Of a stretch of 50,175 bases of DNA, positions 7,525 through 10,420 are shown in pieces. The position numbers and the translations under genes are program-made. The notes under the pieces were generated by a model. It was given only the letters and a program-made list of their open reading frames with translations, was not told the origin of the DNA and ran no database searches. The DNA is from Candidatus Helarchaeota archaeon (GTDB taxonomy: Archaea > Asgardarchaeota > Lokiarchaeia > Helarchaeales > RDOG01), in contig JALGVI010000051.1 of NCBI GenBank assembly GCA_029838215.1, forward strand, positions 1 through 50,175, read 5' to 3'. Positions within the stretch are counted from its first letter, which is position 1; each line of letters begins with the position of its first letter.

Positions 7525-8562
7525 TTAGTAACGGCCGTATTTCATACCAAATTCGACCATTGCCTTAATTTTTTCTAATGGAACATCATGGGGGAACGAA
7601 TGTTGGTTCATCAGCACGTATCGGGATTTGGTCAATCCTTCCGTTCCAGATAAAATGGACTCTTTTACCGCTTCCTCAATTCTTGCAAGTGTCCAATCAA
7701 CAAATTCGATATTATTCAGGTTACCAAATAATGTTATTTTCTCTTTAGATAATCTCTTGCATTCCGAAAGGTCGTCATCACTGCTTAGCGTGATTCCAAT
7801 GATGCCTGTTTGAGTGATATCTTCCACCACAGGTTGGAATGTTCCTCCTGCACCGCCCAATATAATGGGTGCTTTAATACTCGTTGCTAACTTCTTGTAA
7901 ACTGGGACAACCATGTCTTGAAAGACATCTGGCGGAAGAATTGTTGTTGAGACCATCCCATCAATCAACACGAGTAGGTCCACGCCCAATTCTATTTGAA
8001 TATTTGCCCATTCAATTGTAAATGGGATGATCTTATCGAGCACTTGCTTGAAGAGCTTGGGTTCTACTAATAATGTCTCCAACCAATGCATTGCATCGAA
8101 AAAGAATGTCGGGAGTGAGAACGGACCTGAAAGAGCTCCCACTATCGGAACTGTTCCCTTTAATGAACTTTTTGCAAAAAGTTGAATCGCTTTGCGGGGC
8201 TCATCGAATGCAGGGGAATCATTAATTGATGGTGTCTCATGAGATAATACATCCTTTGGCTCTTTAAAAGCGAATTTTTCAAGATTTGGAGAACCATCGG
8301 AAAAAAATAAAGCCGTTGCTCCCCACGGTTCTGCATCTTTAACTAAATAAAAAAAAGCCAGCACGAAATCGTGTCCCAATATGGCTCGAAGTTTCTGTTG
8401 TCCTTGAAAAATGTATTCGCCATTCTTGTAGAGCTCGGGCAATGAGATATTAAGAACATCTGCGGATTTGCTTGTCGTGAGTGGAAAGATGGGCACGCGA
8501 TCAGGCAGACCTCCCTTTACTGTTGTCAAAACGCGTTCGAGAGGACTCATCGAATCTGTCAT
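7525..8562 (-). CDS. Uroporphyrinogen decarboxylase / MtaA-CmuA methyltransferase family protein
   Basis: MSPLERVLTT..G..PDRVP, GPFSLP, LFGNLN, VPLEKIKAMVE..KYGRY signature; follows a corrinoid protein. Confidence 0.85.
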   Translation of the reverse strand: MTDSMSPLERVLTTVKGGLPDRVPIFPLTTSKSADVLNISLPELYKNGEYIFQGQQKLRAILGHDFVLAFFYLVKDAEPWGATALFFSDGSPNLEKFAFKEPKDVLSHETPSINDSPAFDEPRKAIQLFAKSSLKGTVPIVGALSGPFSLPTFFFDAMHWLETLLVEPKLFKQVLDKIIPFTIEWANIQIELGVDLLVLIDGMVSTTILPPDVFQDMVVPVYKKLATSIKAPIILGGAGGTFQPVVEDITQTGIIGITLSSDDDLSECKRLSKEKITLFGNLNNIEFVDWTLARIEEAVKESILSGTEGLTKSRYVLMNQHSFPHDVPLEKIKAMVEFGMKYGRY

Positions 8563-8576
8563 GTTTGATAGATTTT

Positions 8577-9248
8577 TTATTGTGAAACATCCCCCTTAAT
8601 AAGTATATTTAGTGCACCCACGGCAGAATCTGATGTAAAATCGGCATTAATCTTTTTATATAAATCAGGATAGAATCTGAATGGAGCCCCACCAACCACG
8701 ACCTTAATATCAGTTAAATTCTTGGCTTCAAGTTCGTCAACGATCTTTTTAATACCTAAAGCCGTGTTATACATCATCGCACTTACATAAATCCACTTTG
8801 CTCCTTCTTTTCGTGCAATTTTGACGAATTCTGAAGCTGTCACACCTACTCCAAGATCAATTACTTCAAATCCGTGAGCCTGTAAGAAAACCTTGACTAT
8901 CTCCTTGCCCAAGGCATGATGATCTTGAAAAATATTACCAATAATTACTTTATTCTTGCTTATTCTATCCGTGCCATTCTGAAGTGCCGATTTCTCGAGC
9001 TCGGGTTTCAGGAGCTTAAGGGCATCTTCAGCAATTTTTGTAGCCGCAAGTATTTGAAAAGCGGAAATTTGTTTGTACCCTTCTTCCTCAAATGATTGTA
9101 AATTGTCTAAAGTTTTTCCAATCACGTTTATCAGGATTTCTCGGGGAGGAACTTTATTTAGTCCTTTTCTTATGGCATCAAGAGCCTCTTTATACTTTCT
9201 AGACCTTGTAAGATTGAAAAACTCTTCATATAATCTATTAACTTCCAT
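8577..9248 (-). CDS. Corrinoid (B12-binding) protein, MtaC-like
   Basis: DHHALG fits DxHxxG; GFEVIDLGV, SAMM, VVGGAP; N-terminal helical cap; ATG at 9248 with GGGAG RBS preferred over TTG 9299. Confidence 0.9.
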   Translation of the reverse strand: MEVNRLYEEFFNLTRSRKYKEALDAIRKGLNKVPPREILINVIGKTLDNLQSFEEEGYKQISAFQILAATKIAEDALKLLKPELEKSALQNGTDRISKNKVIIGNIFQDHHALGKEIVKVFLQAHGFEVIDLGVGVTASEFVKIARKEGAKWIYVSAMMYNTALGIKKIVDELEAKNLTDIKVVVGGAPFRFYPDLYKKINADFTSDSAVGALNILIKGDVSQ

Positions 9249-9277
9249 TTTTTTTCTCCCAATAATGCTTCTATAAT

Positions 9278-9631
9278 CTAATCTGTAATGAAATTCCAAA
9301 TTGCCTTGACTTTTTCTTCTATGAGTGAATCGCTTGGAAGAAGATCCGGTGAAAACTTGATCAAGATGCTTTGTTTACCATTAAGATAAAGTCTTAGTGT
9401 TCCTGTTTCTCCTTTAATATCCAATTCGTCTAATCCCAAGTCAAAGCCTATATCTGATCTGGCTTTATTAATAGCTTTAAAGATTCTTTTCAATCGTCCG
9501 CTTTCGCTAAAATCGTGATACTTGACTTCAATTCCGTCATAAATGGCTAAACCTTCTACTTCAAGTAAATCCCTGATTGATTCTACTGCTTCCTCAAAAT
9601 TGTTGACAATACTCATGAAAATCGATCTCAC
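9278..9631 (-). CDS. Small roadblock/profilin-like alpha-beta protein
   Basis: About 115 aa; helix-strand(GLAIYDG)-helix-three strands(LDELDIKGETGTLRLYLNGKQSILIKF)-helix pattern. Confidence 0.5.
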   Translation of the reverse strand: MRSIFMSIVNNFEEAVESIRDLLEVEGLAIYDGIEVKYHDFSESGRLKRIFKAINKARSDIGFDLGLDELDIKGETGTLRLYLNGKQSILIKFSPDLLPSDSLIEEKVKAIWNFITD

Positions 9632-9643
9632 TGATTAATTTTT

Positions 9644-10420
9644 TCAAGTTTGCTTAATTGCTTCCTCGACTGCATCTCTTGTCGTGCCAATAATTCCAAT
9701 CTTGGTGCCGTTTGTTTGCTTCAAGGCCATGTGGAATTTCAACGTTTTTCCGATGAAGTAAGAATTTGAACTGTTTAAAAGAAGTTTTTCTAAAGAAACG
9801 AGCATTGGAATCAGGCTTTGAAGAGTTCTATTCAAATAAGGCGAAGAAATAAACACCTGAATTTCAAAGTCATCAAGGCTATCGTTAACATAGGTTTGAA
9901 TACCATTTTCTTGGGATTCAATTACGGTCAAAGATAATATTTCGGGATTCTTGAAAATGTCCTTGACTTTAAGTTCGTAATGTTTGGCTTCCCAAGTTAT
10001 AATGCGTGCCGATATTTTCTTCTCGCCTCTTTGGCAGATCATCGACAAAGTGGGTAAAAACGGCTTGAAAAACGAATGATTACCTCTCCAATTCTTGATA
10101 TCCTTTTCTGTATAATGGTCCAAAAATGCATCATTTAGATGCTGAAAAAGAATCCGTATTTCGTCCAACGGAACTCTTGAATCATGTAGAATTATAATGG
10201 AAAATTCTGAGCTCTTACAAGAATATGAAAAAGACAGTTTAGATAATTGAATTGATTGAATTTCTCCAACTTCTTCTAACTCTGTAGAAAAAGACCGAAC
10301 TGCTTCAAGATATCCGGAAACAAGTGATCCACTATCTCCCAAATCACGCAAGGAAAATAATAACGTGCCACCCGTCTTAATAAACAGGACGTTGTGGATT
10401 AAAGTTTCCGAATCTGCCAT
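9644..10420 (-). CDS. Longin-domain protein with uncharacterised C-terminal domain
   Basis: IHNVLFIKTGGTLLFS...LVSGYLEAVRSFSTEL..GEIQSIQL...F...F...Y...W.GN...F is the Asgard longin/sigma-adaptin-like pattern. Confidence 0.8.
   Translation of the reverse strand: MADSETLIHNVLFIKTGGTLLFSLRDLGDSGSLVSGYLEAVRSFSTELEEVGEIQSIQLSKLSFSYSCKSSEFSIIILHDSRVPLDEIRILFQHLNDAFLDHYTEKDIKNWRGNHSFFKPFLPTLSMICQRGEKKISARIITWEAKHYELKVKDIFKNPEILSLTVIESQENGIQTYVNDSLDDFEIQVFISSPYLNRTLQSLIPMLVSLEKLLLNSSNSYFIGKTLKFHMALKQTNGTKIGIIGTTRDAVEEAIKQT

Follow-up and report, generated by a model that had tools for sequence, protein, structure and literature searches.

Why would an archaeon keep two genes for proteins of eukaryote-like longin and roadblock folds directly in front of a gene pair for a B12 protein and a relative of methyl-transfer enzymes? 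The question is raised by a four-gene cassette, A-B-C-D, in 50,175 nucleotides (nt) of Candidatus Helarchaeota archaeon (GenBank assembly GCA_029838215.1, contig JALGVI010000051.1, positions 1 to 50,175; hereafter the window, meaning this whole stretch). A encodes a longin-roadblock protein, B a small and probably roadblock-like one, C a corrinoid (cobamide-binding) protein and D a protein of the URO-D/MtaA fold. The signals that feed the small GTPases, longin and roadblock proteins of Asgard archaea are almost wholly obscure, and the cassette offers an entry: it pairs longin/roadblock proteins with a B12 protein, a biochemically tractable partner that is coloured and can be read by spectroscopy. 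Here we describe the conservation of the cassette, the folds of its products and the kinship of D with kinase-linked cassettes of anaerobic bacteria, and we discuss whether A-B-C-D may be a corrinoid-state sensor in which a kinase-type reader has been exchanged for longin/roadblock proteins.

A four-gene cassette conserved as a unit

All four genes are co-oriented on the minus strand, with spacers of 27, 29 and 14 nt between A and B, B and C, and C and D, respectively, in agreement with the gaps of 12-30 nt given in an earlier, sequence-only reading of this DNA. Two gene starts were revised. B, initially called at 9278-9631 from a GTG, was moved to the ATG at 9616 because all 10 of its orthologs begin at that methionine; for C, initially called from a TTG at 9299, the ATG at 9248, with GGGAG 8 nt upstream, is the likelier start.

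The A-B-C-D set recurs at at least eight further distinct loci, with 34-63% protein identity to the window and with different flanking genes at every locus, so that the linkage is no peculiarity of one genome. Across these loci C and D may be fused, the A-B pair may be duplicated in tandem, and the order may be permuted to C-D-A-B (Table 1); a linkage that is kept through fusion, duplication and permutation argues for a functional unit. In a library of 1.84 billion representatives and in 400 genomes sampled from the phylum, no full-length A or B was found outside such loci. Three of the 400 genomes, all of one order (that of the window, G000, and two others, G126 and G127), have the roadblock domain of A and have protein B, and a 94%-complete member of the same family has neither. 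As a unit, the cassette is therefore self-contained and limited to one lineage. A metagenome scan with the alignment of A returned a single locus, identical to that of G126.

Two loci carry a further B12 gene nearby. In G127 (L014; contig C110, 4236-7097), A-B is followed after a gap of 340 nt by a gene for a B12-binding radical SAM protein (424 amino acids, aa), in place of C-D, and this 93%-complete genome yielded no D ortholog. At the permuted locus (L009), another B12-binding radical SAM gene lies two genes off. Because these radical SAM proteins are not orthologous to each other (25% identity, over the B12 domain alone), we take the adjacency as a lead only. Separately, a divergent DUF1847 gene (5.2e-58) lies upstream of the cassette of L004/L005 (6001-10228).

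A longin-roadblock protein, A, and a probably roadblock-like B

Protein A matched no Pfam or NCBIfam family. A profile search of the library returned 165 relatives, of which about 10 are full length and the remainder cover residues 7-135 only. With a 125-row alignment, AlphaFold2 gave a model of A with a predicted local distance difference test score (pLDDT) of 94.2 and a predicted template modelling score of 0.80 (pLDDT 37.8 from the single sequence), in which two domains are joined via one long helix (residues 115-155). Residues 5-135 of the model superpose on the longin domain of VAMP7 (4afi_B) with Z 13.2 and a root-mean-square deviation (rmsd) of 2.1 Å over 113 residues (VIA-align), and also on TRAPP (3cue_A, Z 12.7), Sec22 (3egd_C, Z 12.5), the Lokiarchaeota longin 8yqg_B (Z 11.6) and 2dmw (Z within the range 11.6-12.7); over the TRAPP, Sec22, SRX and AP sigma chains Z runs from 10 to 12.7. 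As modelled, this part of A is a longin domain. By the same token, residues 143-258 are a roadblock/LAMTOR domain, superposing on MP1-p14 (2zl1_B, Z 10.4, rmsd 2.7 over 104 residues), MglB (3t1r_A, Z 10.2), an Asgard roadblock protein (7yh1_D, Z 10.2) and 7cy1_A (Z 10.0). This second domain carries an invariant DFE-Q-FISSP motif, has no Pfam match and aligns weakly with the Robl_LC7 set of its own genome (hhalign E 2.7e-3, probability 11%). The longin fold of the sequence-only reading is thus confirmed by the model, and the roadblock domain of A, missing from that reading, is added to it.

The sequences of its relatives bear out the fold of A indirectly. Of 125 members of the longin family, 32 match Fuz_longin_1 in Pfam, 17 Longin, 6 Robl_LC7, 8 TrmB and 2 Arf/Ras; one ortholog of A matches Longin at 3.1e-4, A itself falling under the Pfam threshold. 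A longin paralog in the genome of the window (C57:15984-16883, minus strand, 296 aa) is fused to an Arf/Ras-type GTPase (Arf 4.3e-19). The best whole-chain matches of A in Foldseek were the Rab guanine nucleotide exchange factor (GEF) subunits Mon1, Ccz1, Fuzzy and HPS1/4 (E 2.9e-8 to 1e-5), and a shape search of the ESM Atlas recovered the same Asgard families.

Protein B follows A directly in each of its 10 orthologs. Pfam, NCBIfam and PDB profile searches with B were all blank. Compared with 13 Robl_LC7 paralogs of the same genome, B gave an hhalign E of 2.2e-4 with a probability of 45% over 102 columns, and its language-model look-alikes in the Atlas, which are leads only, include Robl_LC7 and MAPKK1_Int clusters (0.86-0.88). 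B is plausibly roadblock-like on this evidence; the same assignment in the sequence-only reading keeps the hhalign signal and the look-alikes on its side and the lack of a Pfam or PDB profile match against it. By hhalign, no internal similarity was found among the N-terminal domain of A, its C-terminal domain and B. Neither protein has a conserved Cys or His, nor any conserved ligand-binding residue, and the lack of conserved Cys and His argues that A and B are interaction modules and not redox, cofactor or metal proteins.

A corrinoid protein and a zinc-less relative of MtaA

Protein C matches Pfam B12-binding (1.2e-23), with no match to B12-binding_2. Its closest solved chains, all at about 1e-15, are MttC (7xcn_M, 3.3e-15), 1y80 and MtmC (3ezx); the alignment with 7xcn_M covers residues 54-213 of C, part of the N-terminal helical cap included. 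D110, H112 and G115, which make up the His-on motif DxHxxG, are invariant in eight orthologs, as is GGAPF, and the GGAPFRF motif that the sequence-only reading had picked out is present in C. The scores of C lie far under the cut-off of every named family (for TIGR02370, 89.3 bits against 215.3). Its sequence looks typical of a corrinoid protein of the methyl-carrier type.

D has the URO-D (TIM-barrel) fold (Pfam URO-D 5.4e-47, residues 8-338), and its best solved relative is MtaA (4ay7, 6.6e-15). The H-x-C of the MtaA zinc site ("LHIC-G") aligns with G-G-A ("LGGAGG") in D, the third zinc-ligand region reads MNQHSFP, and the single Cys of D is not conserved. Both LGGAGG and MNQHSFP are conserved in all seven orthologs of D, the zinc ligands H-x-C...C being absent throughout; D is therefore not a thiol (coenzyme M) methylase. 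Its scores against TIGR01463 (104.7 bits, cut-off 235.4), NF040654 (88.7, cut-off 400) and NF041608 (73.2, cut-off 600) are all below threshold. The B12-binding and UroD/MtaA assignments of the sequence-only reading are thus upheld by the Pfam searches.

Kinship of D with kinase-linked cassettes

The nearest outgroups of D, P0165 (37% identity) and P0167 (34%), both lie in operons of a B12-binding protein, a URO-D protein and a histidine kinase. A scan for the sister subfamily, with one genome per species, gave 279 loci, of which the best 80, together with L028 and L029, were surveyed (82 in all). Their hosts are mostly Bacteroidales, Desulfobacterota, Chloroflexota and Bacillota, with some Bathyarchaeia and Methanolobus. 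A C-like gene stands directly upstream of the D-like gene in 77 of the 82 loci, and a co-oriented open reading frame (ORF) downstream usually abuts or overlaps the D-like gene. Among 77 such downstream ORFs, DUF1638 was found in 55, HATPase_c in 47, HisKA in 40 and GGDEF in 11, and PAS, GAF and receiver domains were also seen. The corrinoid proteins themselves hardly vary in their motifs (GGAPF in 76 of 77, DxHxxG in all 77). An invariant input in front of varied signalling outputs is what marks a sensor module.

The position of the Asgard proteins was examined in a likelihood tree of D (73 rows, quick search). Its eight Asgard rows make up a clade (Shimodaira-Hasegawa-like approximate likelihood ratio test, SH-aLRT, 98) nested in a 56-row clade with the same support (SH-aLRT 98), which the other URO-D paralogs from the genome of the window fall outside. 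The remaining branches of the 56-row clade are a 43-row sister group, P0179/P0182 and P0176/P0185/P0188. In the second, locus L111 has B12-binding, URO-D and stand-alone DUF1638 genes; in the third, the Geothrix locus L110 has B12-binding, URO-D and DUF1638 genes and one for a PAS-histidine kinase-response regulator protein. In every non-Asgard branch examined within this clade, the B12 and URO-D pair is followed by DUF1638, for the most part as a fusion with a histidine kinase or GGDEF domain. The Asgard class of the window also includes the kinase form: G275 (L117; C238, 2-3120) has C-D-DUF1638-HisKA-HATPase_c, and G170 has a DUF1638-PAS-histidine kinase protein.

The statement in the sequence-only reading that similar corrinoid/UroD pairs precede sensor kinases is thus borne out, and the Asgard D clade lies inside this group. 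DUF1638 itself was found neither in the cassette nor anywhere in the genome of the window, which is 94% complete, and hhalign detected no profile similarity of A or B to DUF1638. In Phaeobacter, a split B12 methionine synthase depends on both a DUF1638 protein and a RamA-like one (10.1101/192971; PMC12478193). The kinship with kinase-linked cassettes is the strongest argument for reading A-B-C-D as a sensor.

Methyl-transfer and GTPase genes in the genome

No substrate methyltransferase (MT1) and no RamA/RACo activase was found beside the C-D pair, either in the flanks of the window, which hold HGSNAT-like acyltransferase and HflX genes, or at L001, L003, L004, L007, L009 and L027; the sequence-only reading had seen none next to the pair either. 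Other contigs of the genome carry one RACo/RamA-type activase and two MtrH homologs, and no MttB was found in the genome. There are 29 B12-binding hits and several other B12/URO-D pairs. On the signalling side, 70 Arf/Ras-type GTPase hits and 17 Robl_LC7 hits stand against 4 HisKA hits. The window itself contains one stand-alone Roadblock/LC7 gene and one small GTPase gene away from the cassette (Table 1).

The cassette as a putative corrinoid-state sensor

We propose that A-B-C-D encodes one protein machine, a cytoplasmic corrinoid-state sensor in which the DUF1638-kinase reader has been swapped for A and B, and we regard this proposal as evenly balanced between right and wrong. It is put forward because the Asgard D clade nests among loci of the B12, URO-D and DUF1638 type and because a kinase form occurs in the same Asgard class. 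Also in its favour are the loss of the zinc site from D, the interaction-type folds of A and B, and a genome rich in small GTPase and Robl_LC7 hits and poor in HisKA hits. C would hold a cobamide in the base-off/His-on mode, and D would set or read the state of the cofactor on C, be it loaded or empty, methylated or not, or its redox state. In most lineages this state would be read by DUF1638 fused to a histidine kinase or a diguanylate cyclase; in a narrow Asgard (Helarchaeota-like) clade, A (longin and roadblock) and B may replace that reader and output, and the kinase-linked sister cassettes likewise predict A and B in the reader/output position. A and B would probably pair via their roadblock domains, dock on C and relay the signal through protein-protein contacts. 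The likeliest output would be control of one of the roughly 70 small GTPases of the organism, and the signal sensed could be B12 supply, methyl-group status or redox state. We infer the pairing of A with B through roadblock domains, the control of a small GTPase and the nature of the signal from the roles of these folds elsewhere; as the cassette encodes no GTPase partner, a GTPase output in particular is to be read in this way.

Docking is consistent with contacts between C and the A-B pair. C against A+B scored 0.59 (runs 0.57-0.60) against 0.00 for the best of three controls, one of which replaced A, with at least 73% contact agreement between runs and a partner pLDDT of at least 74, for a verdict of "weak support": 58 of 80 solved complexes pass the docking mark, as do 2 of 110 mismatched pairs, and passing scores of 0.60 or below come from only 7 of the 80 solved complexes and from both of the passing mismatches.

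Several points weigh against a sensor of this kind. (i), C retains all the features of a catalytic methyl-carrier corrinoid protein, to judge by its sequence, and D keeps a well-conserved URO-D fold with H64 and H321 invariant, so that genuine methyl-transfer chemistry, and hence a metabolic role, is possible. (ii), the RACo/RamA-type activase and the two MtrH homologs elsewhere in the genome could complete a pathway. (iii), the conserved genes include none for a GTPase, kinase or DNA-binding output. (iv), the roadblock fold of B is weakly supported by its sequence. (v), the tree of D was searched quickly and has some long outgroup branches. And (vi), the bacterial DUF1638-kinase cassette has itself a putative function, the role of DUF1638 being known genetically only (10.1101/192971). 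The candidate B12-based sensory system of the sequence-only reading thus stands in part. The folds, with B the weakest, the lack of an adjacent MT1 or activase and the kinase-linked kin speak for it, and what speaks against it is the possibility of a metabolic role with partners encoded elsewhere. Of the conditions under which that reading would fall, two do not hold: the linkage recurs in other genomes, and the pair is no standard MtaA, as the zinc ligands are gone and the scores fall under all cut-offs. The activase and the MtrH homologs leave room for metabolic partners.

In a metabolic cassette, C would be the carrier and D a methylcobamide:acceptor (or substrate:corrinoid) methyltransferase acting on a non-thiol acceptor (e.g. 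a pterin), for which zinc would be needless; A and B would serve the enzyme as accessory subunits, as its scaffold, stabilisers or regulators, and MT1 and the activase would be encoded elsewhere. We judge this somewhat unlikely. C and D truly belong to methyl-transfer families (closest solved relatives, MttC/MtmC and MtaA), DxHxxG is invariant in the orthologs of C, the genome has the activase, the MtrH homologs and other B12/URO-D pairs just described, and fusions of the C-D type occur in metabolism too, for example in MtsD/F/H of Methanosarcina. However, D groups with the kinase-linked clade, away from the other URO-D paralogs of its own genome, neither MT1 nor activase adjoins the cassette at any of about nine loci, and the scores stay far under the cut-off of every named family. 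To our knowledge, no corrinoid methyltransferase has longin or roadblock subunits (a search of the literature gave no example); if the cassette were metabolic after all, it would be the first. A and B might alternatively be cobalamin-handling adaptors that load, protect or target the cofactor of B12-binding domains generally, C-D being one client among others. The docking of C on A+B ("weak support") would suit this explanation, as would L014, where A-B precedes a B12-binding radical SAM gene in a genome with no D ortholog found, and L009, with such a gene two genes away. Against it, the two radical SAM proteins are not orthologs, 340 nt separate B from the one in L014, and A and B have no conserved ligand-binding residue; moreover, with B12-binding genes as common as they are in G000, the single A-B/radical SAM adjacency may be due to chance. 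We find such a general adaptor improbable.

Fainter still is the case for light sensing, in which C would be a cobalamin photoreceptor module of the CarH/AerR kind and A and B its output. B12-binding domains are photoreceptors in other systems and adjoin kinases in photosensor operons (PMC8717448), and C does match CarH (NF052513) at E 0.007; but the match amounts to 15.6 bits against a cut-off of 400, no helix-turn-helix was found in the cassette, an obligatory URO-D-type partner suggests methyl chemistry, and the relatives belong mostly to anaerobic sediment and subsurface lineages. All this makes a photoreceptor highly improbable. As for an accidental adjacency of two unrelated gene pairs, the retention of the linkage at 34-63% identity over at least eight further loci with different flanks, through fusion, duplication and permutation, and the restriction of full-length A and B to such loci leave it hardly credible, and it is effectively refuted.

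Should the corrinoid-state sensor with an exchanged reader be correct, the archaea most closely related to eukaryotes would tie cofactor or one-carbon status to GTPase regulation of a eukaryote-like kind, and the finding would help to explain the widespread, uncharacterised B12, URO-D and DUF1638 cassettes of anaerobes. One may go further and see in the cassette a prokaryotic forerunner of eukaryote-style nutrient sensing, a cofactor sensor that controls a longin/roadblock heterodimer acting as GEF or GTPase-activating protein for a specific Asgard GTPase. We consider this specific version unlikely. If true, it would reveal the first identified input of an archaeal longin/roadblock GTPase regulator, and evolution would have run a natural experiment by putting a GTPase-regulator output in the place of a two-component kinase one.

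Coordinates and neighbouring genes

The features of the window and the other cassette loci are listed in Table 1. The intergenic region between A and the divergent hflX gene has an A/T-rich TTTAATA about 60 nt before the start of A and a GGAAGG 8-13 nt before it. At the other end, a convergent gene ends 4 nt past D. Rfam matched nothing within 7000-11000. HflX was considered as the GTPase partner of the cassette and dropped: it adjoins the cassette in this window only and at no other locus, and for that reason it is probably unrelated.

Table 1. Features of the window (positions on the forward strand) and gene order at the other cassette loci. MAG, metagenome-assembled genome.
Feature	Position	Strand	Description
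Gene A	9644..10420	-	258-aa ORF; two-domain longin-roadblock protein
Longin domain of A, residues 5-135	10016..10408	-	assigned by model superposition
Roadblock/LAMTOR-like domain of A, residues 143-258	9647..9994	-	assigned by model superposition; cassette-specific
Gene B	9278..9616	-	112 aa from ATG 9616; small, probably roadblock-like
Gene C	8577..9248	-	223 aa from ATG 9248; corrinoid (cobamide-binding) protein
Gene D	7525..8562	-	345 aa; URO-D/MtaA-fold protein without the MtaA zinc site
Divergent A/hflX intergenic region	10421..10560		140 nt, A/T-rich; probable cassette promoter region
HGSNAT/acyltransferase-3-like genes	4477-7520	+	two paralogous membrane proteins around a small HTH_17-like ORF, at the D end of the cassette
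hflX	10561-11730	+	HflX-type GTPase (GTP-bdg_N 2.8e-22, MMR_HSR1), divergent from A
VWA-domain gene	11718-13577	+	619-aa protein with N-terminal VWA domain; 13-nt overlap with the end of hflX
ArsA/Get3-type ATPase gene	2873-3874	-	ArsA_ATPase 2.4e-96; adjoins a UPF0047 protein
Roadblock/LC7 gene	27847-28227	+	stand-alone; Robl_LC7 6.5e-16
Small GTPase gene	36537-37070	-	Arf/Ras-type, ~177 aa (Arf 2.5e-15); one of the 70 hits of the genome
L001/L002 (Helarchaeota MAG)			A-B, then C-D fused (580 aa)
L003			A-B-C-D
L004/L005/L006			A-B-A'-B'-C-D (tandem A-B duplication)
L007 (217-kb contig)			A-B-C-D
L009			C-D-A-B (permuted); A only distantly related (1e-14)
L013, identical to L021 (G126)			A-B-C-D
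L027 ("Lokiarchaeota" MAG)			A-B-C-D

Comparison with known systems

The closest counterpart is the cassette of DUF1638 with a histidine kinase or GGDEF protein found in anaerobic bacteria and some archaea. It has a corrinoid protein of orthologous type (DxHxxG, GGAPF) and a zinc-less URO-D partner of the same clade, its genes are tightly coupled, and it likewise includes neither MT1 nor activase. The Asgard cassette differs in having no DUF1638, kinase or cyclase; A and B precede the pair instead. Our literature search found no description of either the bacterial corrinoid/URO-D/DUF1638-kinase cassette or the Asgard longin/roadblock variant. The methylotrophic systems MtaABC, MtmBC/MtbA and MttBC share the carrier fold of C and the methyltransferase 2 (MT2) fold of D and provide the best solved matches, whereas in the cassette the zinc ligands of D are replaced, MT1 and RamA are not adjacent and the scores remain under the cut-offs. 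We know of no system of the MtaABC, MtmBC or MttBC type with longin or roadblock partners.

For A, the tri-longin Rab GEFs (Mon1-Ccz1, Fuzzy-Inturned/CPLANE and HPS1-HPS4/BLOC-3) are the best whole-chain matches (Z 12.5-14.2), and its first domain is of the Fuz/Mon1 longin type. Yet A has two domains and not three, sequence identity is 9-14%, and at a whole-chain rmsd of 14-18 Å the likeness is one of domains and not of arrangement. The roadblock fold forms dimeric platforms for small GTPases; the C-terminal domain of A, and probably B, share it with the chains 2zl1, 3t1r, 7yh1 and 9jue of the Ragulator/LAMTOR, MglB and Asgard roadblock group and with 8yqg, a Roadblock-Longin protein of Lokiarchaeota, but A and B are encoded alongside a pair with a cofactor-binding protein. 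Asgard genomes carry many roadblock and longin proteins, whose genes lie generally outside GTPase operons, and a B12 link is unmentioned (PMC10933270).

The cassette also recalls, by analogy, a eukaryotic system to which its sensor parts are not homologous. If A-B-C-D is a sensor, it would resemble Rag nutrient sensing in its logic, a cofactor or metabolite sensor being coupled to longin/roadblock regulators, though the likeness is conceptual. In eukaryotic Rag GTPase signalling, small-molecule sensors feed the longin/roadblock proteins of GATOR1 and Ragulator. All four parts of the cassette belong to known fold families, and it is their combination that is new.

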